Shown: positions 13,104 to 39,127 of the stretch, one piece after another
Layout: each line of letters begins with the position of its first letter
Position numbering within the stretch: position 1 is the first letter of the stretch
Assembly: GCA_026996605.1 (NCBI GenBank)
Contig: JALWLE010000141.1
Coordinates: 3,086-67,085 of the forward strand
DNA from: Flavobacteriales bacterium
GTDB lineage: Bacteria > Bacteroidota > Bacteroidia > Flavobacteriales > Flavobacteriaceae
Length of the DNA: 64,000 bases
Direction: 5' to 3'
Notes under the pieces: generated by a model
Told to the model about the DNA's origin: nothing
Databases searched by the model: none
Seen by the model: only the letters and a program-made list of their open reading frames with translations
Position numbers and translations under genes: made by a program

Positions 13104-13178
13104 GGGTTCTTAGCTCAGCTGGTTTAGAGTATCGCCTTGACAGGGCGGGGGTCGCCGGTTCGAACCCGGCAGAACCCA
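13104..13178 (+). tRNA. tRNA-Val (anticodon GAC)
   Basis: 75-nt cloverleaf read by eye. Acceptor GGGTTCT/AGAACCC, D-arm GCTC..GAGT, anticodon stem TCGCC/GGCGG with loop TTGACAG, T-arm GCCGG-TTCGAAC-CCGGC. Confidence 0.9.
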
Positions 13179-16098: not shown

Positions 16099-16998
16099 TC
16101 AATTCCTTTTTCCAATATATTTTAATATTTTATCCAAGTCATACGCCATATCAAACCACTTGATATCCTGATTTTTCCTAAACCAAGTTAATTGCCTTTT
16201 GGCAAAACGACGCGTGTTTTTTTTTATTTCTGATATAGCAAAATCTAAATCGTATTGACCGTCAAAATATTGAAACAATTCTCGATACCCAACGGTTTGT
16301 AAGGCATTTTGTTCTCTGTAAGGATATAGTTTTTTAGCTTCGTCAATCAGCCCTTGTGCTACCATAACATCAACACGACGGTTGATACGGTTGTATAAAG
16401 TCGTTCTCTCTCCGGTTAGTCCTATATAGATGGTTTTAAAATCACGTGTGGTTTTTTGTTGATATAAATCAGCCATCTTTTTGCCGTTGGCTTGCCGTAA
16501 AATTTCTATGGCTCTAATCAAACGGTGTGGATTAAGTATATCAATTTTTTGATAATAATCAGAGTCAAGAGCTTGTAATTGTTTTTGTAAACTTTCAATA
16601 CCGTTTTTTTTTAAATCAATGGCTAATTCTTGTCTGATTTTTTCGTTTTTATTCGGTAATTTATCTAGTCCTTTACAAGCTGCATCAATATATAACCCAC
16701 TACCACCTACCAGTATTAAAGTATCTTTGGTTTGAAAAAGTTTTTTAGTCAGTTTTAAGAAATCATCTTCATAGTCGCCTACGTTATAATCTTCAAAAAT
16801 AGATTTGTTTTGAATAAAATAATGTTTTGCAACAGCTAGTTCGTCCGGTTCCGGCACAGCGGTTCCTATGCGCATCTCTTTATAAAATTGTCGTGAGTCA
16901 GCCGAAATAATTTCGGTATTAAGTGCTTGTGCCAGTTTGATACTCAGTGCGGTTTTTCCCGATGCAGTCGGTCCTATAATAGCGATAATACGTTTCAT
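16099..16998 (-). CDS. miaA: tRNA dimethylallyltransferase
   Basis: IIGPTASGKT P-loop, DSRQFYKEMRIGTA, and RRFAKRQLTWFR near the C-terminus. Confidence 0.9.
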   Translation of the reverse strand: MKRIIAIIGPTASGKTALSIKLAQALNTEIISADSRQFYKEMRIGTAVPEPDELAVAKHYFIQNKSIFEDYNVGDYEDDFLKLTKKLFQTKDTLILVGGSGLYIDAACKGLDKLPNKNEKIRQELAIDLKKNGIESLQKQLQALDSDYYQKIDILNPHRLIRAIEILRQANGKKMADLYQQKTTRDFKTIYIGLTGERTTLYNRINRRVDVMVAQGLIDEAKKLYPYREQNALQTVGYRELFQYFDGQYDLDFAISEIKKNTRRFAKRQLTWFRKNQDIKWFDMAYDLDKILKYIGKRN

Positions 16999-17434: not shown

Positions 17435-17953
17435 ATGTCAGCAAAAACTATTTCTCCAAGTCGTTATTTTTATACATTTTTTATAGTTTTTTTGATTTGG
17501 TATGCCTTTACGACTTCGTTACAACCTGCTGAAATCATAACCGGCATAGTTTTGAGTTTGGTGGTGGCATACATCACGGTAGTTAATTTTGATTGTTGCG
17601 ACCCGATTTTGATAACGCCGTCACACATTATATATTTTATCCAATACTTTTTAGTGTTTTTGGTAGCTTTGGTCAAAGCAAACTTTGATGTTGCCAAACG
17701 AGTTATTAATCCGAAATTACCAATCAATCCGGGTATTGTAAGCTTTGAGACTAAATTAAAAAATAATTTTGCAAAAATGGTTTTAGCTAATAGTATCACC
17801 TTAACCCCCGGAACCTTAACAATTGATGTAGTGGATGATAAATTTTATATACATTGGATAGACGTAACAACCGAAAATAAAGACGAAATTTATAAAGAAA
17901 TAGCCGAACCTTTTGAAAAGGTTTTGTTGAAGATATATGGCAGTAGCAAGTAG
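17435..17953 (+). CDS. MrpE/MnhE (MbxA-position) subunit of Mrp-type cation:proton antiporter module
   Basis: ANFDVAKRVINP...PGIV...LANSITLTPGTLTIDV...YIHWIDV matches the MnhE signature. The stop TAG lies inside a repeat. Confidence 0.8.
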   Translation: MSAKTISPSRYFYTFFIVFLIWYAFTTSLQPAEIITGIVLSLVVAYITVVNFDCCDPILITPSHIIYFIQYFLVFLVALVKANFDVAKRVINPKLPINPGIVSFETKLKNNFAKMVLANSITLTPGTLTIDVVDDKFYIHWIDVTTENKDEIYKEIAEPFEKVLLKIYGSSK

Positions 17954-18200
17954 AGACTAATTGTAATTCGTCTCTGTGAAAAGTGCAAATGTAGAGACGC
18001 ACGGTTGTGCGTCTGATGCGGAAAATTTGAAGAGACGTTTTGGCAAAACGTCTGAATTGAAAAATGAAAATGAAAAATTGACAATGTAGAGACGTTGCAC
18101 CGCAACGTCTGAAAAATCTAAAATCTGAAATGAATAATACATCGGACATCCGACATCAGATAACCAGTATCATCAGATAACCAAGTAACCAAATAATCAA
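17950..18200 (+). repeat. REP/BIME-like mosaic at junction 1
   Basis: Four GTAG(or GAAG)AGACG...CGTCT hairpins at 17950-17975, 17991-18018, 18029-18056 and 18086-18114. These are followed by AAATTGA/AAATCTG/ACATCSG heptamer tracts and a CA-rich AAATAACC-type tract (18158-18200) that ends at ATG 18201. Confidence 0.9.
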
Positions 18201-18458
18201 ATGAACATAGTAATATACATAGCAATTGTTTTAATCAGCATAGGTAGTTTTTTAGCTTTTATGCGTTTTGTAAAAGGACCTACGGCAGCCGACAGGGCTA
18301 TTGCCCTCGATACACTTTCGGTTATTGGAATAGCCGGATTGGTCTTATTGGGCTATTTATTTCAACGATACATTTATATCGATTTAGCACTAGTATATGC
18401 CGTTTTGGGATTTATTGGCACTATCGTGATTGCACGTTATATCGAAAAAGCATTGTAA
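18201..18458 (+). CDS. MrpF/MnhF-like subunit
   Basis: 85 aa, 3 TM. RFVKGPTAADRAIALDT motif. Confidence 0.8.
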   Translation: MNIVIYIAIVLISIGSFLAFMRFVKGPTAADRAIALDTLSVIGIAGLVLLGYLFQRYIYIDLALVYAVLGFIGTIVIARYIEKAL

Positions 18459-18823
18459 TGGATACATTAAATAATATATTGGAATACATCGGACTGTTTT
18501 TTGTGCTACTGGGCAGTATTTTTCTGTTTCTCGGTGCATTGGGAATTTATCGTATGCCCGATTTGTACAACCGCCTGCAAGCCGGCACCAAAGCATCTAC
18601 ATTAGGTGCGATGAGTATGGTTTTGGGAATAGGACTGATGCAACCCGGTTGGCTGATTAAACTTATCGTGATAATTCTGTTTATCGGGATATCCAATCCT
18701 TTGAGTTCACATGCCTTGGCAAGAGCATCGTACAAGAGTGGTATTCGTCCGTTTTTTAAGAAGAAGGTAGATGATTATGAGGAAGAAGTTGAAAGTGAGA
18801 AGGGAAAAATGGAAAGTGTGTAG
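18458..18823 (+). CDS. MrpG/MnhG-like subunit
   Basis: GALGIYRMPDLYNRLQAGTKASTLG motif. ATGA overlap with the preceding gene. Confidence 0.8.
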   Translation: MDTLNNILEYIGLFFVLLGSIFLFLGALGIYRMPDLYNRLQAGTKASTLGAMSMVLGIGLMQPGWLIKLIVIILFIGISNPLSSHALARASYKSGIRPFFKKKVDDYEEEVESEKGKMESV

Positions 18824-18845
18824 AGACGAATTGCAATTCGTCTCT
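18820..18845 (+). repeat. Single GTAG-footed REP-like hairpin (class 1) at junction 2
   Basis: gTAGagacgaattgcaattcgtctct. Its TAG is the stop codon of the MrpG-like gene. Confidence 0.85.
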
Positions 18846-18895
18846 TGTGAAAAGTGACAAAATGTAAATAGGAAGAAAAAGTAGTAAGCATTGCT

Positions 18896-18990
18896 GTCAT
18901 TTCGACAGAGCGACGTTAGGAGCGACGAGAAATCTCAAAATTATAAATTTGAAATAAACAAATAGATTTCTCACTGTGTTCGAAATGACA
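18896..18990. repeat. Second repeat family ('X' element): inverted half-sites GTCATTYCGA...GAGRAATCTC / AGATTTCTCAC...TCGAAATGAC
   Basis: The two arms are separated by 27 nt. Copies also occur at 24545-24618 and 28995-29066. Confidence 0.8.
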
Positions 18991-19018
18991 AAAAAATCAA
19001 TTAACAAAAAATAATAAA

Positions 19019-19294
19019 ATGGCTTTAATCTTATTTTTAATAGTAATGGCAATCATATTAATCGCAGCGGCAATCTATGCAGTGATGCAAAAAGATTTAT
19101 TGTATGCCGTTTTGGCAACGGGTATTATCAGCGTGGTACTATCCGTGTTTTTTTATCTGTTGCAGGCACCTGATGTGGCTATCACCGAAGCTGCAATAGG
19201 CATTGCTTTAACAACGATAATTTTTATCATTACCATACGAAATACATCACGAAATGAAGAGGAATACAGTGAGGATCATATCAAGAAGTTTTAA
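19019..19294 (+). CDS. MbhD/MrpB-N-terminal-like (DUF4040-type) small membrane subunit
   Basis: 91 aa, 3 TM. LQAPDVAITEAAIG motif typical of MbhD/MnhB N-terminal domain. Confidence 0.7.
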   Translation: MALILFLIVMAIILIAAAIYAVMQKDLLYAVLATGIISVVLSVFFYLLQAPDVAITEAAIGIALTTIIFIITIRNTSRNEEEYSEDHIKKF

Positions 19295-19309
19295 GTGGAA
19301 AATGCGAAC

Positions 19310-19528
19310 GTAGAGATGCACAATTGTGCGTCTGATGTAGAGACGAATTGCAATTCGTCTCTGTGAAAAATGCGAATGTAGAGACGCACGGTCGTGCGTC
19401 TGATGCGGAAAATTCGTAGAGACGTTTTGGTAAAACGTCTGAATAAAAAATTGTAAATGTAAAATTGATAATGTAGAGACGTTGCACCGCAACGTCTAAA
19501 ATCGAAAATCTGAAATCTGAAATCTGAA
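19310..19528 (+). repeat. REP/BIME-like mosaic at junction 3
   Basis: Five hairpins at 19310-19337, 19337-19362, 19378-19405, 19416-19444 and 19473-19497. An (AAATCTG)n tract then runs directly into ATG 19529. Confidence 0.9.
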
Positions 19529-20248
19529 ATGAAAAAATACATCATATTCATATTAATTGCCATATTGGGTTTGACATTAGCGCAGACCTTTAAAGCCATT
19601 CCTTTTGGAGCGGATAGACGTGGCGATTTGGAAAATCCGGATAAAGTAGCAGCATATTATTTAAAAGAATCACCGGAAACTTTGCAAACGGCTAATTCCA
19701 TTACGGCTATCGTTGTGAATTTCAGGGGGTTTGACACATTAGGCGAAGTAACCGTTTTGTTTTTAGCAGCAACTGGATTAGCAAGTATTTTATATCGAAA
19801 AGAAGAAGAAGATGAAGAGGAAGTAGAACGCGTTCGTTTGCCATCATCAAGTTTGGTACGAACAGGTGCCAAAATCTTATTTCCGTTGATGTTATTGTTG
19901 GGAATTTACGTGTTTGTACACGGACATTTAACACCGGGTGGAGGATTTCAAGGAGGCGCCATTATTGCTACCGGATTTTTGTTGATGCTGATAACCTATA
20001 AGCATTTTGAAACCAATCACAAGGTAATGGTTTGGCTTGAAAGTTTGGCCGGCTTGGCATTTGTAGCAGTCGGGCTTTACGGTTTGTTTGCCTATGGGTC
20101 GTTTTTGCAAAATACACATTCCGTCGGCACGCTGAACGATTTAATCAGTGGAGGCTTAATTCCTTTAATTTATATTTTTATCGGAATTAAAGTCGGCACG
20201 GAATTGACGAATATTTTGGATATTTTGTTGAAGATTAAAAAAAGCTGA
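19529..20248 (+). CDS. MrpB/MnhB-like subunit
   Basis: NSITAIVVNFRGFDTLGEVTVLF signature, followed by TM helices. Confidence 0.8.
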   Translation: MKKYIIFILIAILGLTLAQTFKAIPFGADRRGDLENPDKVAAYYLKESPETLQTANSITAIVVNFRGFDTLGEVTVLFLAATGLASILYRKEEEDEEEVERVRLPSSSLVRTGAKILFPLMLLLGIYVFVHGHLTPGGGFQGGAIIATGFLLMLITYKHFETNHKVMVWLESLAGLAFVAVGLYGLFAYGSFLQNTHSVGTLNDLISGGLIPLIYIFIGIKVGTELTNILDILLKIKKS

Positions 20249-20291
20249 CGCTTTTTTAGTGCGAAGTGGAAAGCGATAAAGTGGAAAGTGC

Positions 20292-20579
20292 GTAGAGACG
20301 AATTGCAATTCGTCTCTATGAAAAATACGAATGTAGAGACACACAATTGTGCGTCTGATATAGGAAGCGCGTAGAGACGTTTTGGTAAAACGTCTGAATT
20401 GAAAATTGAAAATGAAAAATTGAAAATTAATAACGTAGAGACGTTGCACCGCAATGTCTGAAAATCAAAAATCGAAAATCTGAAATGAATAATACATCGG
20501 ACATCCGACATCGCTCATCGGACAAATCATCCGACATCAATTAACCAAATAACCGGTATAACCAAATAACCAAAAATAA
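20292..20579 (+). repeat. REP/BIME-like mosaic at junction 4
   Basis: Four hairpins at 20292-20317, 20333-20359, 20371-20398 and 20435-20463. These are followed by heptamer tracts and a CA-rich tract ending at ATG 20580. Confidence 0.9.
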
Positions 20580-20972
20580 ATGACAGAATTTAACGACTTG
20601 TTCATCAAATATAAAGATCTGATAACCATTGCGGTTTACGGGACGGCTATAATGTTGATTTTGATTGGCTTATATGCCGTATTGCTCAAAAAACATTTGG
20701 TAAAAATAGTCATCGGCTTATCTATTATTGATGCCGGTGTGCATTTGCTTTTTGTAGCGGTGGGCTATATTCAAAATGGTACGGCACCCATCTTTTCACC
20801 CGGCAATGAACATGCTGCGAGTAAAATGGTTGACCCTGTTCCGCAAGCATTGGTATTGACGGCAATCGTTATTGGTTTTGCCGTAACGGCTTTGGCTTTG
20901 TCCTTGGTTATTCGATTATACAAGCATCATCATACAGCAAATATTGATCAAATAAAATCATTGAAATGGTAA
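20580..20972 (+). CDS. MrpC/MnhC (NuoK-like) subunit
   Basis: 130 aa, 3 TM. DPVPQALVLTAIVIGFAVTA motif. Confidence 0.8.
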   Translation: MTEFNDLFIKYKDLITIAVYGTAIMLILIGLYAVLLKKHLVKIVIGLSIIDAGVHLLFVAVGYIQNGTAPIFSPGNEHAASKMVDPVPQALVLTAIVIGFAVTALALSLVIRLYKHHHTANIDQIKSLKW

Positions 20973-22447
20973 TTAGTCCGGTTCATTATATCGTAGCGCC
21001 TTTGTTGGCGGCTTTTGCAATTCCGTTGCTCACCAAGCTTTATAAAGATGCGGCGCGTGTGGTGCCGGGAATTGTCTTGTTTTACAATGTCATAATTTCC
21101 TTTGTGTTGATGCAGCAAGTATCGCAAACCGGAATGATTAGCGAAGTGCTTGCCGGTTGGCGTCCGCCTTGGGGCATCAATTTGGTTTTGACACCTTTTA
21201 CGGCATTTTTGGCGACAATGATATCGGTTTTGGGTTTTATCATTTGGCTTTACGGCTTCCGCTTTAAGCGAACATTGAAGGGTGGGGTTGTCAAGCATTA
21301 CGAAATACTGCAAATGATGATGGTTGCCGGTTCTATTGGGGTGATTATTACCGGTGACTTGTTCAATATGTTTGTGTTTATCGAAATTGTCGGTATTACA
21401 GCCTATTCACTTACAGCATTTTACCGGGAGAGAAACGGTGCCGAAGCAGGTTTTAAATATTTATTAATCGGAAGTTTGGCTTCTACATTTCTGTTATTAG
21501 CTATTTTGATTATTTATACACAAACCGGCACGCTTAATATGGCGCAAATTGCTGAAAGAATGGCTTTTGTTCCGCATACAATGAAAGTAACCGCCTTAAT
21601 ATTTTTCTTAATAGCCTTGGGTATTGAAGCTGAAATGTTTCCGCTCAATGCTTGGGCACCGGATGCTTACGAGCAAGCACCTTCGCCAACAAGTGCCACC
21701 TTTGCTGCAGTGGTTTCCATAGCAGGCGTGTATGCTTTGGTTCGGGTATTGTTTACTTTGTTTGACGTATCAGGCGTGCATAATTATTTGATTGTAATGG
21801 GGTTTGTAACGATGTTGGTAGCGGAAATTACCGCTATTGCACAAAAAAATCTCAAACGAATGTTGGCTTATTCCAGTATCGGTCAAGTGGGCTTGGTATT
21901 GATTGCCTTTGGTATCGGTAGCAAGTTGGCGGTGTTTGGTGCAATATTTTTGATGCTCAATCATGCAGTTATTAAGTCCTTACTGTTTATGACAGGTAGT
22001 TATTTTATCTATAATGCTGATGACAAACGTTTGATTGGCTTAAACGGTATGCACAAACAGTTGCCTTATGTATCCGCTTTGTTTTCATTGGCTGCCTTTG
22101 CCATAGTGGGCTTTCCGCCTTTTTCAGGATTTTGGAGTAAATTTTATATCCTGATTTCGGCATCCGACCAAAAAATGATGTATCTGATTATTGGTATTTT
22201 GTTGGTAACGATTATCGAATTGGTTTACTATTTACGGGCAGTCGGACGTATTTATTTTGCCAAAGAAGAAATGGAAGACGTTGCACATCGTCCGTCTGTC
22301 AATGCTTTGGTGGCGATGTCATTATTAGCTTTGTTTATCATTGTAGTCGGTGTTTATCCCGATATTGTTACCGGCTATCTCAATGATGCCGCTAGTGCGT
22401 TATTAGATAAAGCGCATTATATTCAACAAATTTTAGGAAGTAAATAA
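20966..22447 (+). CDS. MrpD/NuoM/N-like proton/sodium-translocating antiporter-type subunit (MbxH position)
   Basis: 493 aa, about 14 TM. Conserved AYSSIGQVG and LNHAVIKSLLFM motifs. Overlaps the upstream gene by 7 nt. Confidence 0.8.
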   Translation: MVISPVHYIVAPLLAAFAIPLLTKLYKDAARVVPGIVLFYNVIISFVLMQQVSQTGMISEVLAGWRPPWGINLVLTPFTAFLATMISVLGFIIWLYGFRFKRTLKGGVVKHYEILQMMMVAGSIGVIITGDLFNMFVFIEIVGITAYSLTAFYRERNGAEAGFKYLLIGSLASTFLLLAILIIYTQTGTLNMAQIAERMAFVPHTMKVTALIFFLIALGIEAEMFPLNAWAPDAYEQAPSPTSATFAAVVSIAGVYALVRVLFTLFDVSGVHNYLIVMGFVTMLVAEITAIAQKNLKRMLAYSSIGQVGLVLIAFGIGSKLAVFGAIFLMLNHAVIKSLLFMTGSYFIYNADDKRLIGLNGMHKQLPYVSALFSLAAFAIVGFPPFSGFWSKFYILISASDQKMMYLIIGILLVTIIELVYYLRAVGRIYFAKEEMEDVAHRPSVNALVAMSLLALFIIVVGVYPDIVTGYLNDAASALLDKAHYIQQILGSK

Positions 22448-22451
22448 GATT

Positions 22452-24302
22452 ATGGAAATGAACAGTTTAGCTATCATATTAGGCGTACTTTTTACCGGCA
22501 GTATTTTGACGTTCAGCATTGATACATTCAATCGAAAACTCACCGGATGGACAGCATTTGCAACGCTTCTTATTGCTACAATATATTTTTATACCACTGG
22601 AAATGATGCTGATTTTAGTTTACAAATTGGTGGGATAACCTTAAAATGGGGACTATCGGCATTTCGCCTATTTTTCATAAATATCGTATTGATATTGGGT
22701 GTTTTAGCACTACTTTATTCCATCGGATATATGAAAGGAAAAGCCCGTTTGGGCTATTTTTACGCATCCTTTGTAATGACGATTTTAGGAATGTTCGGTG
22801 TAGTTATCAGTAAAGATTTCGTGTCCCTATTTATCTTTTGGGAAATTATGACTTGGTCGTCCTTCCTATTGATTATTTACAATGCCTATTACAAGATTAA
22901 AACAGAAGGACTGAAATATATGGTTTTTAGCGCTATCGGTGCGTATGCAATGCTGACAGCTATCGTTTTTATTTATCATTTTTACGGCACATTTGATATA
23001 GCCGAAGCGATGCAGAAAGGTGTCTTTTCGTTTGAAAATCACGCTTTTATACCCATATTTTTGGCATTGGGATTTGCCATAAAAGCCGCCGTGATGCCCT
23101 TTCACGTATGGGCACCTTCGGGTTATGCTAACAGTCCGATGTCATTTACATCAGTATTTTCTGGTGCAATGTCCAAAATGGGCGTGTTTGGACTCTTGTT
23201 GATTTTTGCAACTTATTACACATCTCATACACCGGGTGCTTATGTGTTCACGCAAATTCTGGCGTGGATGGGTGGTATTACCGCTGTGATGGGGACTATT
23301 TACGCACTCATACAAAACGATGCCAAAAAATTGTTGGCATATTCATCTATTGCACAATTAGGATACATTGTAGTGGCACTGTCCACAGGAACCAAATTGG
23401 GCGTAATGGCAGCCCTGTTTTTAGCGGTATTACACGCTGCCTTTAAAGGCGCCTTGTTTATGGTAGCAGGTGCGGTCGAAAAGCAAGCCGGCACTACGGA
23501 TATGACCAAAATTTCGGGTTTAATCAGAAAAATGCCATGGACGTTTTTTGTTGCCTTGGTTTCTGTTATTTCATTGGCTGGTGTGCCACCACTTGGGGGA
23601 TTTATCGGAAAATGGCTCTTATATGAAGCTTTGATTACCGAAAGTCATAACTATTTCTTGGTCATTGTGATATTTTTTTCATCGACAGCGGCATTTTTGT
23701 ATGCTTACCGATTTTTATTCGGATTATTTTTAGGACAAGAGGAAAAAGAAACAGAAAATGTAAAAGAAGCCCCTTTGACGATGCTCGTTCCGATGATTGT
23801 TTTGGCATTGGTTTCTATCATTACAGGTGCGATGCCCGGATTGATTTTTAAACCGGCAGCCGTAGCGATGCGAGATATCGGCTTTTCATCTATGGATTGG
23901 CAAATGTCCACATTATCAAATGTTTGGGGTAATAATGTAGATGTCAGTTTGATTGGTGCATTTATAGGTATTGTTTTCGTTTTGATTTTTGCATTTTTGA
24001 CATTAAAAGGACGTAAAACAACCCGTAAAGTTGGCACCAAAGAAATTTCCAGTTCAGGAGAATTGTGGAAAGAAGGCGAGAATTGGACCTTTCAACAAGA
24101 TTTTTTCAAACCCTTTGAACGCGCCGCATCGCCTTTATACAAGTTGAAAATGAACAAAATATGGGAAGATTTGGGTAATGCATTAGAAGCATTCTTTAAT
24201 TTTTTCAGACGCATATATACCGGCAATGGACAGACGTATGCGATGTATGTTGTGGGATTTCTTGTTTTGTTGATTTTGTTTAGAGATTATATATTTAAGT
24301 AG
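22452..24302 (+). CDS. Second antiporter-type subunit, NuoL/MrpA/MrpD-like with C-terminal extension (MbxH' position)
   Basis: 616 aa. FWEIMTWSSF, AYSSIAQLGY and LHAAFKGALFM motifs. An extra ~130-aa tail ends in a TM helix. Confidence 0.8.
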   Translation: MEMNSLAIILGVLFTGSILTFSIDTFNRKLTGWTAFATLLIATIYFYTTGNDADFSLQIGGITLKWGLSAFRLFFINIVLILGVLALLYSIGYMKGKARLGYFYASFVMTILGMFGVVISKDFVSLFIFWEIMTWSSFLLIIYNAYYKIKTEGLKYMVFSAIGAYAMLTAIVFIYHFYGTFDIAEAMQKGVFSFENHAFIPIFLALGFAIKAAVMPFHVWAPSGYANSPMSFTSVFSGAMSKMGVFGLLLIFATYYTSHTPGAYVFTQILAWMGGITAVMGTIYALIQNDAKKLLAYSSIAQLGYIVVALSTGTKLGVMAALFLAVLHAAFKGALFMVAGAVEKQAGTTDMTKISGLIRKMPWTFFVALVSVISLAGVPPLGGFIGKWLLYEALITESHNYFLVIVIFFSSTAAFLYAYRFLFGLFLGQEEKETENVKEAPLTMLVPMIVLALVSIITGAMPGLIFKPAAVAMRDIGFSSMDWQMSTLSNVWGNNVDVSLIGAFIGIVFVLIFAFLTLKGRKTTRKVGTKEISSSGELWKEGENWTFQQDFFKPFERAASPLYKLKMNKIWEDLGNALEAFFNFFRRIYTGNGQTYAMYVVGFLVLLILFRDYIFK

Positions 24303-24305
24303 CAA

Positions 24306-24654
24306 GTAGAGACGTACGGTCGTGCGTCTGATGAGGGATAAGAGATAAATTAGTGGAAAGTGGAAAGCGTAGAGACGAATTGCAATTCGTCTCTGTGGAA
24401 AAAGAAAAATATGTAGAGACGCACGGTCGTGCGTCTGATGTAGAAATTGTGTAGAGATGTTTTGGTAAAACGTCTAAATAGAAATTTAAAATTGATAATG
24501 TAGAAACGTTGCACGCAACGTCTGAAAAATATGCAATGAATAGTGAGATTTCTCACTACGTTCGAAATGACAGGCGTTGTCATTCCGACAGAGCGACGAA
24601 GGAGCGACGAGGAATCTCAAATAACCAAATAACCGATTAACCAAATAACCAGAA
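24306..24654 (+). repeat. REP/BIME-like mosaic at junction 7, including an X element
   Basis: Five hairpins at 24306-24333, 24369-24394, 24413-24440, 24451-24475 and 24500-24527. X element at 24545-24618. CA-rich tract at 24619-24654 abuts ATG 24655. Confidence 0.9.
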
Positions 24655-25608
24655 ATGATATTAACAATCAAAATATTAGGCGCATTACTAACCGCAATCT
24701 TGGCTTTTACAGTCGGGATGTTTTACGGTGGTTTACGACGTAAGATTACGGCGCGTGTACAAAATCGTGTAGGACCGCCGGTTTACCAGAATTTTTTAGA
24801 TTTAATGAAATTGCAAGCCAAAGAAACCAATATTGCGCACGGTTTTATGGGGCATATGGCACCAATGTGGATTATCATAGCGGCGATGACTGTTTTGATG
24901 TTTATTCCCGTCTTGCACAACGGTTTATGGTTTGACAATTTAACCTTTAAAGGCGATTTGATTTTCATCCTTTATATGATGGTCTTTGGGTCATTGGGAA
25001 TGGCATTAGGTGCCGGACAATCCGGTAATCCCAATTCGGCAATTGGTGTAACTAGGGGTTTGGCAATGATGGTGGGTTATGAAATTCCGTTTGTGTTGTC
25101 ACTGGTAGCCATTATGATACAATTTCATACGACATCCTTGCAAGATTTAATGCAATACCAACAAGAAACCGGTAGATGGATTATTATGGAGAATCCCTTT
25201 GCATTTCTAGCGGCATTATTATCTTCCTTGGGAATGTTTCGCTATTCGCCTTTTGATATTGTAGGCGCACCGGCAGAATTGGCATCGGGACCGGTATCGG
25301 AATTCGGTGGCAAATATCTCGGAACAATGATGAGTGGTGGTGCTGTGTTTGCCTTTATCAAATTGGTTTTGTTTGTCGATATTTTCTTGGGAGGCGCCGG
25401 TAATACGGAATTAGAAGGTATTCTAGGCACATTAGCAGGATTAGGTGAATTGTTATTAAAAACATTTTTGTTTTATATGATTCCCGTTTTTATCGGATTA
25501 GTTAGTCCCAGATTTAGAACCGAACAAGCCATTCGATTTTTTTGGAAATGGCCAACGTTTTTAGGGATTTTAGCAATTGTTTGGGCGTTGTATCATCCTA
25601 TTCGTTAA
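24655..25608 (+). CDS. NuoH/MbhM/HyfC-like membrane subunit
   Basis: RKITARVQNRVGPP motif and about 8 TM helices. Confidence 0.8.
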   Translation: MILTIKILGALLTAILAFTVGMFYGGLRRKITARVQNRVGPPVYQNFLDLMKLQAKETNIAHGFMGHMAPMWIIIAAMTVLMFIPVLHNGLWFDNLTFKGDLIFILYMMVFGSLGMALGAGQSGNPNSAIGVTRGLAMMVGYEIPFVLSLVAIMIQFHTTSLQDLMQYQQETGRWIIMENPFAFLAALLSSLGMFRYSPFDIVGAPAELASGPVSEFGGKYLGTMMSGGAVFAFIKLVLFVDIFLGGAGNTELEGILGTLAGLGELLLKTFLFYMIPVFIGLVSPRFRTEQAIRFFWKWPTFLGILAIVWALYHPIR

Positions 25609-25621
25609 AAATTAAAAGTGT

Positions 25622-25826
25622 GTAGAGACGAATTGAAATTCGTCTCTGTGGAAAGTTAAAAGTTGAATGTAGAGACGTTTTGGTAAAACGTCTGAATTGA
25701 AAATTGAAAATGGATAATTAATAAATAACATCCGACATCGGTCATCCGACAATCAATAAACCAGTATCATCAAATAACCCCTGATGAGAATCGGGGTAAG
25801 CAAATAACCACATAACCGAAAATAAA
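25622..25826 (+). repeat. REP/BIME-like mosaic at junction 8
   Basis: Hairpins at 25622-25647 and 25669-25696. ACATCSG-like tract. CA-rich tract with embedded hairpin cccctgatgagaatcgggg, ending at ATG 25827. Confidence 0.85.
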
Positions 25827-26480
25827 ATGACAAATAATCCGGACAAAAATATCAAAACACTCGGCATACCAACCGAAGATGAAATTCGTCAAGCGCAGAT
25901 TGAATTTGCGCCGCGTTGCACATCAGCCGGGCGGGTCAATGATAAGGAAACGCAAAAAATGGTGCAATATATTTTGAACTTTGCTCGTAAGCATTCATTG
26001 TTTGTCTTAGCTTATGGCACTGGTTGTGGCGCTATTGAAATTCCGGCAACGATGACATCCCGTTACGATGCGGAACGCTTTGGAATTCGCGGGGCGGCAA
26101 CCCCTAGGCAAGCAGATGTCTTGCTGATTACCGGTTACCTATCCACCAAAACCTTAAAAAGAGTTATCCGCGTGTATGAGCAAATGCAAGACCCTAAATA
26201 TGTCATTGCTTTTGGTTCGTGTACCATTAACGGTGGGATGTATTTTGACAGTTATAATACTATCAAAGCGCTCGACCGGTATTTACCGGTAGATGTATAT
26301 ATCGCAGGATGTATGCCGCGTCCCGAAAGTGTGATTAAGGGCTTTATCAAATTACAAGAATTAATACAAAACGGCAATGCCGGCGGTGGCAAATGTTATC
26401 GCGATAATTTGGAATGGTATCGTGCCAATCAACAAAAAGTAATCAAAAATTGGGATTTTCCCGATGAGTATAATTGGTAA
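25827..26480 (+). CDS. NuoB/MbhJ-like [4Fe-4S] small subunit
   Basis: GTGCGAIE...RQADVLLITG...GSCTINGG...GCMPRPE. The first motif has a single Cys where NuoB has CC. Confidence 0.8.
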   Translation: MTNNPDKNIKTLGIPTEDEIRQAQIEFAPRCTSAGRVNDKETQKMVQYILNFARKHSLFVLAYGTGCGAIEIPATMTSRYDAERFGIRGAATPRQADVLLITGYLSTKTLKRVIRVYEQMQDPKYVIAFGSCTINGGMYFDSYNTIKALDRYLPVDVYIAGCMPRPESVIKGFIKLQELIQNGNAGGGKCYRDNLEWYRANQQKVIKNWDFPDEYNW

Positions 26481-26487
26481 GTGAAAC

Positions 26488-26522
26488 GATGATATGGTTA
26501 TTTGTTGATATGGTTATATGAT
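26488..26522. repeat. TG-rich tract, the inverted counterpart of the AAATAACC/ATATCATC tracts
   Basis: gatgatatggttatttgttgatatggttatatgat is complementary to 26920-26965 downstream of the four-helix-bundle gene. Confidence 0.7.
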
Positions 26523-26547
26523 AGTTGAACAGAAAAAAGGATATTGA

Positions 26548-26913
26548 ATGAAACGACAATTTTCTTTTGAAAAATTAGAAGTTTGGCAAAATGCAATTGA
26601 TTTATCGATTGATGTTTATCAATTGACGAAAGATTTTCCGGATGAAGAAAAATTTGTTTTAGTTAATCAAATGAGGAGAGCAGCCTTATCCATTTCGTCA
26701 AATATTGCAGAAGGAAACGGTAGAGAAACAAATAACGATCAAGCCAGATTTACAACAATGGCATACGGCAGTCTGATGGAATTATTAAACCAATTGATTT
26801 TTTCCTATAAATTAGGATATATATCAGAAAATCAATTAGACGAATTAAGAGATAAGATTAATCTTATTTCAAACCAATTAAACAGATTAAGAAAATATCA
26901 AAAAAACAGATAA
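26548..26913 (+). CDS. Four-helix-bundle protein (23S rRNA intervening-sequence / Avd-like family) inserted inside the operon
   Basis: 121 aa. FEKLEVWQNAIDL...QMRRAALSISSNIAEGNGR...SLMELLNQL pattern of the S23-IVS family. Confidence 0.8.
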   Translation: MKRQFSFEKLEVWQNAIDLSIDVYQLTKDFPDEEKFVLVNQMRRAALSISSNIAEGNGRETNNDQARFTTMAYGSLMELLNQLIFSYKLGYISENQLDELRDKINLISNQLNRLRKYQKNR

Positions 26914-26919
26914 CCTATT

Positions 26920-27044
26920 AACCAATATCATCAAATAACCAGTTAACCAATATCATCAAATAACCCCCGACAATAGTTGGGGTAAGCAGATAATCAAATA
27001 ATCAGTATAACCAGTTAACCGATTAACCAAATAACCAATAAGAA
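26920..27044 (+). repeat. CA-rich AAATAACC/ATATCATC tract array with embedded small hairpin, abutting ATG 27045
   Basis: aaccaatatcatcaaataacc occurs twice, then cccccgacaatagttgggg, then ataaccagttaaccgattaaccaaataacc. Confidence 0.85.
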
Positions 27045-27602
27045 ATGCAAGAAAACATATTAAATCAACTCAAAAAAGTCTTTAAAATTGATGGCGAGAT
27101 AAAAACGCCAATGCGAATAAAAATCGTAGCAGACAAGGACTTGGTGTCGAGTATTTTGCTTTATTTAAAAAATCAGATGGGTTTTATCCACTTGAATCAT
27201 ATGTCTTGTGTGGATTGGATTGAGGACAATAAATTTGAGTTGGTGTATATCGTTTGGCATCCGGAACAAAAGCAAACCGTTTTGGTGCATACGTTTATCG
27301 ACAGGAATAATCCGGTAATGGAAAATATAGATACGATATGGGATCAAGCCAATACCTACGAAAGGGAAATGCGAGAGATGTATGGAATAGAATTTCCCGG
27401 ATTGATAGGCGCTAAAGAATTTATTTTAGAAGATTGGCAAGAAATGCCCCCGATGCGACGTGATTTTGATACGAAAAAATATGCACAAGAAACCTATGAA
27501 ACGCGTCCCGGAAGAGAAAACGCCCGTGATGTAAGAGAAGAATTGATGAAACGAAGCGGCGAAGAATTACCGGATTTTGCGAAAAAGTATTCTAGGGATT
27601 GA
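27045..27602 (+). CDS. NuoC/MbhK-like subunit
   Basis: ANTYEREMREMYGIEFPG signature (ERE..D/E.GI.F). Confidence 0.8.
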   Translation: MQENILNQLKKVFKIDGEIKTPMRIKIVADKDLVSSILLYLKNQMGFIHLNHMSCVDWIEDNKFELVYIVWHPEQKQTVLVHTFIDRNNPVMENIDTIWDQANTYEREMREMYGIEFPGLIGAKEFILEDWQEMPPMRRDFDTKKYAQETYETRPGRENARDVREELMKRSGEELPDFAKKYSRD

Positions 27603-27642
27603 GTGTTTAGTGGAAACCGGAAAAGTGCTAAGTGGAAAGTGC

Positions 27643-27792
27643 GTAGAGACGTTTTGGCAAAACGTCTGAATTGAAAATTGAAAATGGATAATTGACAACG
27701 TAGAGACATTGCAAGCAACGTCTAAAAAATCTGAAATCTGAAATCGCAAATCTGAAATATAAAATCAAATAACCGATTAACCAAATAACCAA
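27643..27792 (+). repeat. REP/BIME-like mosaic at junction 11
   Basis: Hairpins at 27643-27670 and 27700-27727. AAATCTG heptamers. CA-rich tract ending at ATG 27793. Confidence 0.85.
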
Positions 27793-28896
27793 ATGTTAGA
27801 AAAAGAAACAACCTTATATTTAGGACCACAGCACCCGGGGATTACCGGAAATATGATGATAAAGCTCAAAGTCAAAGGCGATGTGGTAACACAAGCCGAA
27901 ACGCACGTTGGGTATTTGCATCGGGCTTTTGAGAAACTGATTGAAGGACGCAATTGGTTACAATCCTTTACGTTATTGTGCCGTTTTTGTGTACCGGAGC
28001 CGGACCCTATGGAACTGACATATGCACGTGCCGTAGAGCAAATCGAAGGGCGTGAAGTACCGCCACGTGCTAAATATATCCGGACTATCGTTGCGGAATT
28101 AGCTCGTATTCAATCGTTTTTGTTGTGGTATGGCGGTCAATCCGGTTCGAGTGGTTTATACACATTGGGACAATGGAGTGTCGGAGACAGAAACTATATT
28201 CTCGACTTATTTGAAGATCTGACCGGTGCACGAATTTATCATATGTATATGTGGCCCGGTGGTGTGCGTCGCGATTTGCCGGAAGGTTGGGTTGATAAGG
28301 CATATAAGACGATGGATTATCTGGAAAAACGATTAGATGATTACAATAAATTATTATTTGACAATGCCATTTTTCAAAAACGGGCACAAGGTGTCGGCAT
28401 TATCCCCAAAGATAAAGCCATAGAATGGGGCGTTGTAGGCGCACCGTTGCGTGGCACCGGTATTAAGCACGATGTGCGTATCGATGAACCTTACGAAGCT
28501 TACTCCGATTTGGATTTTGTTGTGCCAACTTACGAAGGAGGTGACGTGTGGGCAAGAGCACTCGTTCGTAGAGATGAGATTAAGCAATCTATAAGTATTA
28601 TCAGACAAGCTCTGGATAAAATGCCGGGCGGTAGTTATTACAATCGTATTCCAAACCCGATGAAATGGACGGTTCCGGCAGGAGAAGCTTGGGTAAAAAC
28701 CGAAAGTGTCCGTGGCGAAATAGGATTTTATGTGGTCAGTGATGGTAGCAACAAACCAAGACGGGTACATTTGAAAGGTGCTGCTTATACACACGGTGTT
28801 AGTGTGTTGGAAAAAATATTGCCCGGACAGAATATTGCCGATGTATCATTTATTTTGAATTCGTTAGGCGTTTGTCCCCCGGAGATTGAGAGGTAG
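27793..28896 (+). CDS. NuoD / group-4 [NiFe]-hydrogenase-large-subunit-like protein with an incomplete Ni-Fe ligand signature (MbxL/MbsL-like)
   Basis: GPQHPGITG start. HVGYLHRAFEKL. LLCRFCVPEPDP where hydrogenases have RxCGxCxxxH. C-terminus LGVCPPEIER where hydrogenases have DPCxxCxxR. Confidence 0.8.
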   Translation: MLEKETTLYLGPQHPGITGNMMIKLKVKGDVVTQAETHVGYLHRAFEKLIEGRNWLQSFTLLCRFCVPEPDPMELTYARAVEQIEGREVPPRAKYIRTIVAELARIQSFLLWYGGQSGSSGLYTLGQWSVGDRNYILDLFEDLTGARIYHMYMWPGGVRRDLPEGWVDKAYKTMDYLEKRLDDYNKLLFDNAIFQKRAQGVGIIPKDKAIEWGVVGAPLRGTGIKHDVRIDEPYEAYSDLDFVVPTYEGGDVWARALVRRDEIKQSISIIRQALDKMPGGSYYNRIPNPMKWTVPAGEAWVKTESVRGEIGFYVVSDGSNKPRRVHLKGAAYTHGVSVLEKILPGQNIADVSFILNSLGVCPPEIER

Positions 28897-28926
28897 CTAG
28901 CGCGAGTTAAAAGTTGATAGTTGGAA

Positions 28927-29066
28927 GTAGAAACGCACGATCGTGCATCTGATGTAGAAAGCGCAGATGAATTGAAAATTGAAAATGGAGAATTAGATTT
29001 CTCACTGCGTTCGAAATGACAGCAATTGTCATTCCGACAGAGCGAGGGACGAGCGACGAGGAATCT
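28927..29066 (+). repeat. Degenerate REP-like hairpin plus X element at junction 12
   Basis: gtagaaacgcacgatcgtgcatctgatg at 28927-28954. X element agatttctcactgcgttcgaaatgaca-gcaat-tgtcattccgacagagcg...gaggaatct at 28995-29066. Confidence 0.8.
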
Positions 29067-29173
29067 AATCTAAAAATTTGATATGTAATAATAAGTTTTA
29101 AGAAGATGTCATTTAAAAAGTAGAATTTTGGTTTGTATTTCTGCAAGGCACTTCACACTAAAAAATATAGACA

Positions 29174-30964
29174 ATGAGTATAATAGATTTGAAAGGCATA
29201 TTAACACCAATGACGGCGCTGAAGCAAATTGGAAAACAACCGCATACCATAAGTTTTCCAGATGAGCAGAAAGATATTTCGCCGCGTTATAGAGGTTTTC
29301 ATTACAACGATTTGGAGCAATGTATCGGTTGTGGCAACTGTGCGACTATTTGTATGAATGAAGCCATTGATATGATTGCATTGGCGGGCATTGAGGGACA
29401 AGCCGGTGATAGTGGCTTACGCCCGCAGATAGACTATGGGCGTTGTTGTTATTGTGCCTTGTGTGTCGATGTATGTCCGTCAGGCTCGCTCAATATGACA
29501 CAAGATTTTATCAAAGTCAGCCCTGATCCTTTTGATTTCTTGATGGTGCCGGGTAAGGACAATCCCGAGGCAAAAGAAAAATTGAGTTTTACGGCAGATC
29601 TAGATACATCGCTCAATGTATTTGACCGTGTGCCAATGCGTGAACTCGACCCGGAAGAACGGGTAAAATCTTTTGCCGAAGTATTTTTGGGCTATAACGA
29701 AGAAGAAGCCCGTATTGAAGCCAGTCGTTGTATCAGTTGCGGACTTTGTACTGAAAATTGTCCGGTGCATATGCACATACCGGAATATATCAATGCCATT
29801 GCCAAAGCTGATGATGAAGCGGCAATTAAGATCATTTATGACAATAACGATTTACCCGAAATGTGTGGTAAAGTTTGTACTCGTCGTTGTGAAGATGTTT
29901 GTGCGTTGCAGGTAAGAGGAGAAGCCGTTGCGATTCGTTGGCTTAAACGCTATGCAACCGAACGGGCTGAAAATGCCGATATGATTGCCGAAATTGTCAA
30001 TCCTGAAATCAGAGAACCGAATCAATATAAAGTTGGTATTATTGGTGCCGGTCCGGGTGGATTAACCGCTGCATATTATTTGGCATTACGCGGTTACAAT
30101 GTAACGGTTTACGAAGCGCATAAAGATCCGGGCGGTATGATAATGTATGGTATTCCAAAATACCGTTTGCCGTATGAAAGTATCCAAAAACAGGTGGATT
30201 ATATGAAAAAAGTTGGTGTAAAAATACATTTCAATACGGTGGTTGGAAAAGATATAAGTTTTGATGAAATTTATAACAACAGCGATGCCGTTTTTATGGC
30301 GGTTGGACTGCAAGATGCATGGAATTTGGGCATAGAAAATGACGATGCCAAAGGTGTATGGTCTGCTATTAATTTTCTAGGAAAAGTCAATTCCGGCGAA
30401 CCGGTTGATATTGGAAAACGCGTCGTTGTAGTAGGCGGTGGTGATGTGTCTATTGACTGTTCTCGTGTATCGCGCCGTTTGGGTGCCGAAGTTTATCAAT
30501 CTTACAGACGTCGTATTCAAGATATGCCTGCGGATTTAGAAGAAATTGAAGGTGCAGAAGCCGAAGGTGTACATATTATGCCACAAACCATTCCGACACG
30601 TGTGATTAAAGACGAAAACGGTAAAGTCAAAGGATTGGAATACGTCAGAGCCGAAATGATTTCGGAAGGCGGTGGACGTCCGCGACCAAAACCTATTGAG
30701 GGCAGCGAAACCATAATCGAATGTGATGCCGTGATTGCCGCAATCGGACAAAAAGCTGATTACAGCTTACTACCGGAACATATTTTAGCCAAATTGGAAA
30801 TGCAAAAAAATAAAATTGTGGTGGATGAGAATAGGAAAACATCTATTCCTAAATTATTTGCCGGTGGTGATGCCGTTGTTTCCGGTCGTAATGATGCCAT
30901 TTCGGCAATTGCAGATGGCTACGCTGCTACAAAAGCGATTGATGCGATGTTGATGGGGAGTTAA
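29174..30964 (+). CDS. Fusion protein: NuoI/MbhN-like 2x[4Fe-4S] ferredoxin domain plus GltD/SudA/NfnB-like NAD(P)H-dependent FAD oxidoreductase
   Basis: N-terminal CIGCGNCATIC and CCYCALCVDVCP. Then RCISCGLCTENCP...MCGKVCTRRCEDVC, and GIIGAGPGGLTAAYYL...GGMIMYGIPKYRLP plus a second Rossmann VVVVGGGDVSID. Confidence 0.85.
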   Translation: MSIIDLKGILTPMTALKQIGKQPHTISFPDEQKDISPRYRGFHYNDLEQCIGCGNCATICMNEAIDMIALAGIEGQAGDSGLRPQIDYGRCCYCALCVDVCPSGSLNMTQDFIKVSPDPFDFLMVPGKDNPEAKEKLSFTADLDTSLNVFDRVPMRELDPEERVKSFAEVFLGYNEEEARIEASRCISCGLCTENCPVHMHIPEYINAIAKADDEAAIKIIYDNNDLPEMCGKVCTRRCEDVCALQVRGEAVAIRWLKRYATERAENADMIAEIVNPEIREPNQYKVGIIGAGPGGLTAAYYLALRGYNVTVYEAHKDPGGMIMYGIPKYRLPYESIQKQVDYMKKVGVKIHFNTVVGKDISFDEIYNNSDAVFMAVGLQDAWNLGIENDDAKGVWSAINFLGKVNSGEPVDIGKRVVVVGGGDVSIDCSRVSRRLGAEVYQSYRRRIQDMPADLEEIEGAEAEGVHIMPQTIPTRVIKDENGKVKGLEYVRAEMISEGGGRPRPKPIEGSETIIECDAVIAAIGQKADYSLLPEHILAKLEMQKNKIVVDENRKTSIPKLFAGGDAVVSGRNDAISAIADGYAATKAIDAMLMGS

Positions 30965-31504
30965 TAAGTGGAATGTATTTAGTGCCAAGTGAAAAGAGGT
31001 AAAGTTTAAAGAGACAAAGTAGGACATTTAAAATAATACCAATTCCAAATATAAAATAGTCCAAAAGGATTTGGGGTATTCCCGATTTATAGAGACAGAT
31101 TATACCGATATTCATAAAAATAGTTCAATTTTCCGGAAATTATCATGATTTTGATTATGATAATCAAAAAAATGAGAACCGTAAATAGGATGTGAAACGA
31201 ACCTACAATAACAATCAGATTAAGAGGTTTATTTATCGTTTTATAGCAATTGCAAGAAAATGGATGCATCAATGGCGGTAATGGGTGTTAAAACTCTACA
31301 CTAATCGACCGTATTATACAGGTTGATTGATCGAAAAACATATCTTAAATGTTAAATACAGGGAAGGGAATATTTGGTTTTTAAATAGATAATTGTTGAT
31401 AACCGGACTGTTATGTTTTATTTGTAAAATTATGCTCTTTATTTGTTTAAAAGTATAACTAGTCTTTTCAAAATTATCTATTGATAAGCTAAAAAAATAT
31501 TAGC

Positions 31505-31836
31505 TCTATGTCGTTTTGTGTGGGTAATAATAAATTAGGTTCAAGAATCATTTAATCATGGTGATTATCTTTTTAAATAATTTCACCCCTACGGGGTTTA
31601 TGTTCTTAATGATATAAATTTTCTATAATTATGTCACTTCCTTCAGGGTTCAATAGTGTTTTTTTATTGTTTAATCTATAAATATATCACCTCTACGGGG
31701 TTCTTTATATGAAGCCCGAAGGGCTGACATTATTATAATAAAACAATGTCTTTGACCCCGACAAATGCGGGGGGCATTATTATTTGAGATATTATATATT
31801 TTACCCACTTAAATCGATATAAGACCAAAATATTTT
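31505..31836 (+). mobile_element. MITE-like ~330-bp non-coding repeat, copy 1
   Basis: Roughly 85-90% identical by eye to 38754-39098. Imperfect ~30-bp terminal inverted repeats (tctatgtcgttttgtgtgggtaa...ttacccacttaaatcgatataaga). Internal ~50-bp sub-repeats each carry a CCCC-TACG-GGGG-type hairpin. Confidence 0.7.
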
Positions 31837-31937
31837 TAACTCTTTTTACGTTAAATTTTAGATAATAAATACGGAAAAAATTCTATTTTTAAAATTTTTA
31901 TATCTTGTTTCGGATTGATAGCATATTAACTATGATT

Positions 31938-38753: not shown

Positions 38754-39098
38754 TCTATGTCGTTTTGTGTGGGTAATAATAAATTAGGTTTAAGAATCAT
38801 ATAATCATGGTTATTATTTTTTATATAATTTCACCCCCTACGGGGTTTATGTTATTAACGTCATAAATTTTCTATAAATATATCACCCCTACGGTGTTCA
38901 ATGGTGTGTTTATTATTGTTTTGTCTATAAATAAATCACTCTTTCGGGGTTATTATATAATCCAGACGATTGTCGGGAGACATTATTATAATAAAGCAAT
39001 TAAACAAAGTTTTTGCCCCCGACGACTGTCGGGATACATTATTTTTTGAGATATTATATATATTACCCACCTAAATCGATACAGAACCATAAATATTT
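38754..39098 (+). mobile_element. MITE-like ~340-bp non-coding repeat, copy 2 (direct orientation relative to copy 1)
   Basis: Collinear with 31505-31836, including both termini and the internal hairpin sub-repeats. Confidence 0.7.
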
Positions 39099-39127
39099 TA
39101 TAAAGTCTAATAAAATAAAATAAATTC

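Follow-up and report, generated by a model that had tools for sequence, protein, structure and literature searches.

An ordered, one-directional array of GTAG-footed, REP-like hairpins in a respiratory operon of an uncultured flavobacterium

Among the transposases that go with repetitive extragenic palindromic sequences (REPs), known as REP-associated tyrosine transposases (RAYTs) or TnpA_REP, members of subclass 2.4 are abundant in Cyanobacteria and Bacteroidetes (Quentin et al. 2018, PMC6006769). This subclass has both canonical and 'double foot' REPs, and REP copies also occur in frame within the transposase gene (PMC6006769). In Table S1 of that study, the foot and basal stem GTAGAGACG...CGTCT(CTAC) characterise REPs adjoining subclass 2.4 TnpA_REP genes, among them GTAGAGACGCACGGCCGTGCGTCTCTAC of Chloroflexus aggregans, GTAGAGACGTTGCATGCAACGTCTCTAC of Cyanothece, GTAGAGACGCGATTTATCGCGTCT of Flavobacterium branchiophilum, and GTAGAGACAAGGCATGCCTTGTCTCTAC (GTAGAGAC...GTCTCTAC) of Aequorivita. 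Another survey found GTAG-tagged repeats in Proteobacteria, Cyanobacteria, Chloroflexi, and bacteria of the Planctomycetes-Verrucomicrobia-Chlamydiae (PVC) group, and in Bacteroidetes CGTC-tagged repeats only (Di Nocera et al. 2013, PMC3733652); the sequence GTAGAGACG is absent from its text and supplements. Here we describe a family of 24 short hairpins in a 64,000-nt stretch of DNA from an uncultured flavobacterium (assembly GCA_026996605.1, contig JALWLE010000141.1, positions 3,086 to 67,085), which is referred to below as the window and in which all unprefixed coordinates are counted. Judged by their sequences, these hairpins are probably (at about three chances in four) REPs of the GTAGAGACG...CGTCT(CTAC) group, which goes with the subclass 2.4 RAYT/TnpA_REP of Bacteroidota, Cyanobacteria, and Chloroflexi. 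The element type has already been described, and the window family is an atypical, ordered array running in one direction, in the window confined to one operon.

An exact search of the window for the foot pattern TAGAGACG-N6-20-CGTCT yielded 16 matches, with 0 expected from 100 shuffles. When up to one mismatch was allowed in each foot half and a palindrome was required, exactly 24 units were obtained between positions 17951 and 28950, all 24 with the foot on the + strand. Each unit takes the form (G)TAGAGACG-palindromic core-CGTCT, and the cores fall into four classes, i.e. class 1 with a core of the AATTGCAATT type (6 copies), class 2 with a core of the CACGGYYGTG or CACAATTGTG type (7 copies), class 3 with the core TTTTGGYAAAA (6 copies), and class 4 with a core of the TTGCACCGCAA type (5 copies). 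The foot is GTAG in 23 of the units and GAAG in the unit at 18030. Class 1 is a near-perfect palindrome of 26-28 nt that also matches the - strand and is therefore of the 'double foot' form, and the window classes 2-4 are single-foot. With lengths of 23-28 nt and stems of 8-12 bp, the units are short imperfect palindromes, as REPs are. The search thus reproduces the 24 hairpins with one shared foot and four core classes that an earlier note on this DNA had described, and the intact units do form hairpins when folded as RNA (predicted energies, -8.8 to -14.8 kcal/mol). Neither the relaxed search nor a search with the bare 8-mers GTAGAGAC and TAGAGACG, the latter made on both strands, detected a copy beyond 17.9-29.0 kb within the window. 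The units, the composite block that they form, and the host operon are as follows (L numbers denote loci retrieved in the scans described below).

17435..30964, + strand: host operon; the hairpins are all in its intercistronic spacers
17950..18114, + strand: composite block 1-2-3-4 with linkers; further copies at 19337-19501, 20292-20463, and 24369-24527
17950..17976, + strand: class 1, degenerate copy GTAGAGACTAATTGTAATTCGTCTCTG; TAG at 17951-17953 is the stop codon of MnhE
17991..18014, + strand: class 2, CACGGTTGTG core
18029..18053, + strand: class 3, foot GAAG instead of GTAG
18086..18110, + strand: class 4, TTGCACCGCAA core
18820..18846, + strand: class 1; TAG at 18821-18823 is the stop codon of MnhG
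19310..19333, + strand: class 2, AATT-loop subtype, one stem G.T
19337..19363, + strand: class 1
19378..19401, + strand: class 2
19416..19440, + strand: class 3
19473..19497, + strand: class 4
20292..20319, + strand: class 1, perfect 28-nt palindrome except for the last base (GTAGAGACG..CGTCTCTAT), matching both strands
20333..20356, + strand: class 2, AATT-loop subtype, one A.C mismatch
20371..20395, + strand: class 3
20435..20459, + strand: class 4, one stem G.T
24306..24329, + strand: class 2, starting 5 nt past the stop codon of the second antiporter-M gene
24369..24395, + strand: class 1
24413..24436, + strand: class 2, with a copy at the orthologous site in L005 and L013
24451..24475, + strand: class 3, with an orthologous copy in L005 and L013
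24500..24523, + strand: class 4, shorter core TTGCACGCAA, with an orthologous copy in L005 and L013
25622..25648, + strand: class 1, loop variant GAAA
25669..25693, + strand: class 3; the class 2 unit of L005 and L013 is missing at this site
27643..27667, + strand: class 3
27700..27723, + strand: class 4, degenerate, one A.C mismatch
28927..28950, + strand: class 2, decayed, two mismatches; followed by class-3 linker context without a hairpin

The window units share the foot and basal stem of the Table S1 REPs, and their cores are near-identical to those listed there. The same architecture is widespread: a scan of viral contigs for GTAGAGACG-N10/11-CGTCT gave, among the matches listed, more than 120 loci with GC contents from 0.35 to 0.72, in which many palindromic cores, mostly of the double-foot form, were found. 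A direct connection to RAYT genes was obtained from a metagenome scan with the class-3 24-mer, which returned 30 loci. In four of these (L142, L151, L158, and L159), the class-3 hairpin lies in frame inside an open reading frame (ORF) with the motifs PNHxH ... WQ ... YIxxNP, and the ORFs of L158 and L159 match Pfam Y1_Tnp above threshold. The L158 protein has 2103 homologues, many of which are named 'REP element-mobilizing transposase RayT' in their source records. Three further loci were reached through homologues of this protein: L172, where one REP precedes the RAYT start codon by 10 nt and another is inside the gene; L175, with one REP inside the RAYT gene; and L176, with a complete REP-RAYT-REP arrangement and two more REPs inside. 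The class-3 hairpin was thereby located inside or flanking six independent RAYT genes (L142, L151, L158/L175, L159, L172, and L176). An alignment of 22 RAYT members places REP-encoded peptides in a hypervariable site after the HUH motif, namely GRDVLAKRLY from class 3, VETLHATS from GTAGAGACGTTGCATGCAACGTCT, and RDAMHCVS and VETHCNASL from other cores. In L174 (6001-7065, protein P0104), a 354-aa RAYT homologue carries about five tandem repeats of about 33 aa (VETPRSNVSSDEYTxTPNHTHEIVGVNNASP) at this same site, which appears able to expand greatly with the frame kept.

The identity of these ORFs as RAYTs was examined with several profiles. The NCBIfam model REP_Tyr_transpos matched them with E-values from 1e-13 to 1e-18, below its 80-bit equivalog cutoff. 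A RAYT profile that included Escherichia coli RayT matched 4ER8, the structure of TnpA_REP, in the PDB; as this search was partly circular, the E. coli sequence was excluded, and the profile built without it again had 4ER8 as its sole match (E 8e-7). A phmmer search of the PDB with a single RAYT gave no match. With E. coli RayT as the query, phmmer recovered nothing from any ORF of the first 141 loci, and it did detect RAYT ORFs among the loci of the class-3 metagenome scan. The earlier note had likened the GTAG foot and palindrome to the REPs mobilised by RAYTs, and this likeness gains support from the Table S1 foot and from the class-3 hairpin at the six RAYT genes. Its remark that the window holds no RAYT gene stands; its view that the architecture is described chiefly from Proteobacteria no longer holds for this REP type, which is catalogued in Chloroflexus, Cyanothece, Flavobacterium branchiophilum, and Aequorivita. 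In L170, which is from a different organism (GC 0.44), the class-3 hairpin occurs 12 times in a 1-kb array at 4370-5428, mostly in alternating orientation and adjoining RAYT-like ORF fragments; this is the classical layout of bacterial interspersed mosaic elements (BIMEs) or REP doublets forming hairpins (REPINs), unlike that of the window.

The operon that hosts the window units is a co-directional, mrp/mbx-like respiratory operon with genes for MnhE, MnhF, MnhG, MbhD, MbhE/MnhB, MnhC, two antiporter-M proteins, NuoH-, NuoB-, NuoC-, and NuoD-like proteins, and an Fe-S/flavin oxidoreductase, in this order. Relative to the upstream gene, the units are in sense orientation and are situated at the stop codon or 5-42 nt past it, and behind four operon genes the hairpin starts 0-15 nt after the stop codon. 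All of the single-foot window units (22/22) have the orientation of the upstream gene, and in related loci there is a single exception. In five independent cases, the upstream gene has the TAG of the foot itself as its stop codon (17951-17953 and 18821-18823 in the window, 2261-2263 in L004, 3691-3693 in L011, and 6185-6187 in L172), and in the last of these that gene is immediately upstream of a RAYT gene.

Stable GC-based hairpins directly behind stop codons might be taken for intrinsic terminators or attenuators that subdivide the operon, but this explanation is highly improbable. No unit (0/24) is followed by a T-run, i.e. a U-tract in the transcript, and the terminator scan reports none of them; the 3' flanks read CTGTGAAAA, GATGCGG, GAATTGAAAA, and GAAAAATC. 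Arrays of 4-5 hairpins would also stand between genes of an obligate multi-subunit complex. Two related loci, L003 and L007, have a separate canonical terminator, consisting of a hairpin and a T-run, after the array, which indicates that the arrays lie in 3' untranslated regions (3' UTRs) and are not the terminators, in agreement with the earlier note. A scan for sigma-70 promoters, which does not model Bacteroidota promoters, found 68 where 54 ± 8 were expected and was thus at background.

The possibility of a known RNA family or another repeat class was also considered. At gathering thresholds, Rfam 15 gave no match to the hairpins; the sole window match was a tRNA gene at 13104-13178 (+ strand, 60.5 bits). 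At E <= 1, only a chance snoRNA match (24 bits against a 70-bit threshold) was found in the hairpin region. A CRISPR array was ruled out because the cores recur in four classes and the intervening 'spacers' are repeated themselves. A double-stranded binding site for a dimeric protein, with AGACG and CGTCT as half-sites and a role in the organisation or regulation of the operon similar to that of BIMEs that bind IHF or gyrase, would be consistent with an outer inverted repeat that is invariant at a fixed spacing of 10-11 bp around a variable centre. However, the centre is always self-complementary and shows compensatory variants (TTGCACCGCAA in the window versus TTGTACCACAA in L003), which point to hairpin formation, and neither the orientation bias nor the GTAG foot is explained by such sites; we regard this reading as very unlikely. 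For spacer IG3, the predicted fold has a z of -6.5 (RNA) or -6.9 (DNA). Because the AGACG/CGTCT arms are common to all units, the minimum-energy RNA fold of a whole spacer can also pair arms from different units, and the DNA fold is dominated by local hairpins.

The classes follow one another in the fixed order 1-2-3-4, at times as 2-1-2-3-4 or with members missing, and are joined by conserved linkers (CTGTGAAAAATGCGAATG, GATGCGGAAAATTC, and GAATTGAAAATTGAAAATG...), so that REP variants and linkers form a repeated mosaic as in REPINs and BIMEs. The resulting block of about 165 nt, with start-to-start spacings of 41, 38, and 57 nt, is present in four spacers, and its copies are 85-91% identical in pairwise comparisons. 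A related purine-rich motif (GTGGAAAGTGCG, GTGAAAAATGCGAATG, or GCGGAAAATTCG) precedes each hairpin, which suggests tandem growth of a hairpin-plus-linker unit and then block-wise copying. Every spacer further has two flanking modules, a GTGGAAAGTG leader and a CAAATAAC tail. Comparison of filled and empty spacers revealed no terminal inverted repeats or target-site duplications at the block borders, and the block is built only from direct-orientation units; a MITE, a miniature transposable element bounded by inverted repeats, was therefore rejected.

A decayed GTGGAAAGTG-type leader with a remnant foot (AAAGAGACAAAGTAGGAC) is located at 30978-31028, 3' of the last gene of the operon, and is 67% identical to 20255-20305. 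The spacers also contain tandem heptamer and octamer repeats, which resemble the short tandemly repeated repetitive (STRR) sequences of cyanobacteria: TCTGAAA at 19495-19535 and 27727-27766, AATTGAA at 20397-20428 and 27669-27695, ACATCGG at 20494-20524, and CA-rich CAAATAAC repeats at 20538-20574, 24618-24651, 27008-27039, and 27766-27794. The CA-rich octamer runs stop 1-6 nt ahead of the start codons of MnhC, NuoH, NuoC, and NuoD and may act as unstructured leaders for translation that does not depend on Shine-Dalgarno sites. A second structured repeat is present in the spacers at 18895-18990, 24544-24619, and 28992-29069, as a long imperfect hairpin (GAGATTTCTCACTnCGTTCGAAATGAC...GTCATTCCGACAGAGCGACG...GAGGAATCTC; -26 to -28 kcal/mol, z -3.1 to -4.5) with no Rfam match. 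Its copy at 18895 is circularly permuted, and in L005/L013 it has extra internal insertions and stands in place of the hairpin block in spacer IG4.

Related arrays were collected by scanning one genome per species with the class-1 25-mer. The 11 loci obtained are all from metagenome-assembled genomes (MAGs) of Flavobacteriales/Flavobacteriaceae and contain the same four classes in the same order. In these loci the units follow unrelated genes, e.g. those for GcvP, an RNase J-like beta-CASP protein, peptidases, tryptophanase-like lyases, UvrA, MutS, SpoU, and nuoN, and across the related MAGs and metagenome contigs together the same classes stand behind more than 10 unrelated genes. In L004, an ORF of 121 aa that lies between hairpins, at first suspected to be a gene of the intervening-sequence type described below, proved to encode an ArsC-family protein.

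The orthologous operon was found in a sister species (L005, contig JALWTX010000022.1, and L013), with 93-98% amino-acid and 89.9% nucleotide identity in the genes. L013 has 12 operon hairpins compared with 24 in the window. The full block is present in IG1, IG3, and IG4 of the window only; IG5 has two units more in the window, and IG6 of the window is without class 2 and class 4. Hairpin content has turned over by whole blocks and by single hairpins between the sister species. At two sites, CGTAGA/TGAATTG in IG1 of L013 (about 7500-7530) and GCGCAGA/TGAATTG at 28961-28974 of the window, the class-3 linker context (AGA/TGAATTGAAAATTG) occurs without a hairpin, which fits precise loss, or an absence from the start, of the 19-nt palindrome GACGTTTTGGCAAAACGTC. 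Where the spacer is shared, it is strikingly conserved: over the part of IG5 from class 2 to the NuoH start codon, 230/242 positions agree between the window and the sister species (95.0%), as against 73.9% of third codon positions (Fisher p = 3e-16). These data do not support a recombination tract behind the conservation, since identity in flanking 100-nt bins varies between 79% and 96% and the flanking genes show no long tract. The non-repeat DNA upstream of the operon provides no neutral control, as that of the window and that of L013 are not orthologous.

These comparisons bear on two other readings of the family. The hairpins could be selfish REP debris without any host role that has piled up here because long operon spacers tolerate insertions. 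Stem mismatches, one or two each, occur in 9/24 units and comprise both types, 4 G.T and 5 A.C, as expected from unselected transitions; the two-fold difference in content between sister species and the unrelated host genes in the relatives would also fit. We nevertheless consider this unlikely: conservation of the shared spacer far exceeds that of synonymous sites, and without selection or a mechanism coupled to transcription, complete co-orientation of the units with transcription would hardly arise.

The second reading, for which we see a limited but real chance, takes the block of about 165 nt, rather than the single hairpin, as the functional and evolutionary unit. Such a block would be an intercistronic RNA module, copied by recombination or gene conversion with no present RAYT activity, that controls expression through 3'-end protection, processing sites in AU-rich linkers, or modulation of termination. 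The fixed order and linkers across spacers and species, the 85-91% identity of blocks within and between genomes, the 95-96% identity of the orthologous block (versus 74% at third codon positions), the strict sense orientation next to stop codons, and the leader and tail modules, which could guide recombination, all speak for it. Yet the same cores exist in other phyla as free double-foot REPs and inside RAYT genes, so the hairpins are not an invention of this module; single hairpins are also gained and lost, and a wobble bias is absent. The block reading is compatible with an origin of the units as REPs and does not exclude it.

Several observations weigh against the assignment of the window units to RAYT-linked REPs with an added mRNA role. 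RAYT genes are absent not only from the 64-kb window but also from the close-relative loci L001-L013. The RAYT link was seen for class-3 (and hp4-like) cores, mostly in the double-foot form, and not for the single-foot classes 1, 2, and 4 of the window. Within the window, the units are not dispersed, being found in the intercistronic spacers of one operon and in none of about 20 other spacers. All 24 units are arranged head-to-tail with no inverted one, and REPINs and BIMEs alternate in orientation; this strictly head-to-tail, ordered, sense-oriented layout is not predicted by RAYT/REPIN models. The lack of a sense-strand wobble bias among the stem mismatches leaves no direct signature of RNA-level selection, and the conservation of the spacer could stem from concerted evolution instead of function.

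If the units are nevertheless REPs of the GTAGAGACG group, as we favour, the following course can be proposed. Each unit would fold on single-stranded DNA, and a RAYT encoded at another site of the genome would recognise and cut its 5' GTAG and stem base; such cutting would have seeded the hairpin family. In this lineage, four stem variants, each with its purine-rich 5' linker, may have been joined head-to-tail into the block of about 165 nt, and blocks would then have been gained or lost between spacers as units. They may have spread in RAYT events that involve several units at once, or else by recombination or gene conversion at the flanking modules that the spacers have in common. Because the foot is directly repeated, single hairpins can be deleted with the order kept.

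REP-dependent stabilisation of mRNA is known from malE-malF in E. coli. Liang, Rudd and Deutscher reportedly observed in 2015 that E. coli REPs within about 15 nt of stop codons lower translation. RNase R and PNPase act on mRNAs that contain REPs (PMC12320835). By analogy with the E. coli REPs, the hairpins of the window most likely have an added role in mRNA, to which their sense orientation, their position at or near stop codons, and the conservation of the spacer point. They may block 3'-5' exonucleases and hinder terminating ribosomes, thereby tuning relative subunit output, and a role of this kind would account for the 95% conservation of the shared spacer. A rather doubtful extension of this idea is that the four-hairpin cassette constitutes an intercistronic 'punctuation' of long operon mRNAs that is block-copied in sense, independently of inverted-pair RAYT transposition, with the spacer conservation reflecting function. 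Such a cassette would consist of hairpins that coincide with stop codons or lie close to them, of linkers that are AU-rich and cleavable, and then of CA-rich unstructured leaders suited to organisms without Shine-Dalgarno use.

Two other features of the region may be recorded. A gene for a 121-aa 23S-rRNA-intervening-sequence protein (PF05635, weak bAvd-like match) is located inside the operon at 26548-26913 and is bracketed by inverted repeats (26495-26511 and 26925-26941; 17 nt, 94% complementary). Its counterpart in L013 (16994-17353) is similarly bracketed (arms at 16913-16936 and 17464-17487; 24 nt, 96% complementary). In each case the arms consist of the spacer module found downstream (CAAATAACC in the window, CCGACATC in L013). 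In the window the gene resides between nuoB and nuoC and in L013 between nuoC and nuoD, and the nuoB-nuoC spacer of L005 lacks it; it resembles a small mobile cassette housed within a long stem, in the manner of rRNA intervening sequences. An intergenic repeat of about 330 nt that is unrelated to the hairpins occurs at 31505-31838 and 38754-39100 (82-93% identity). It is situated downstream of the operon, upstream of a further gene block, and has small ATCACCCCTACGGGGTT hairpins inside.

The family opens no new class of elements. It extends the range of the GTAGAGACG REP group to uncultured Flavobacteriales, indicates that several stem variants can share one foot within one genome, and provides direct sequence links of one variant to RAYT genes, including in-frame REP insertions at a fixed protein site. 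With ordered sense-only arrays, stop codons supplied by the foot, and spacer conservation far above that of synonymous sites, the operon is a good test case for the question of whether REPs are merely tolerated or are used to set the subunit ratios of a multi-subunit membrane complex.

With the E. coli REPs that act on mRNA, the window units have in common that they are sense hairpins between cistrons and that, behind four operon genes, they lie 0-15 nt past the stop codon; Bacteroidota differ from E. coli in translation initiation and RNase set. Compared with the Y/Z REP mosaics of E. coli BIMEs and with Pseudomonas REPINs, the family likewise consists of REP variants and linker motifs in a repeated mosaic with a GTAG foot, and in both cases the elements are extragenic, transcribed, and located in 3' UTRs or between cistrons; unlike the alternating inverted REPs of those elements, however, the window units are all direct. 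In the GTAG-tagged super-family (Di Nocera et al. 2013, PMC3733652), too, a terminal GTAG adjoins a short stem-loop, there are subfamilies whose stems show compensatory changes, and the repeats are found mostly downstream of coding regions, between genes of the same direction. The closest counterparts are the subclass 2.4 REPs (Bertels group 4). From these the window family differs in that its classes 2-4 are single-foot and that all of its units are head-to-tail, in a fixed four-class order with conserved linkers, and within one operon. The units share with them an identical foot and basal stem (GTAGAGACG / CGTCT[CTAC]), stems of 8-12 bp, and loops of 3-4 nt, as well as REP copies in frame in the RAYT gene at the site after the HUH motif; class 2 of the window differs from the Chloroflexus REP core by one loop base, and an hp4-like core is present among the Cyanothece REPs.

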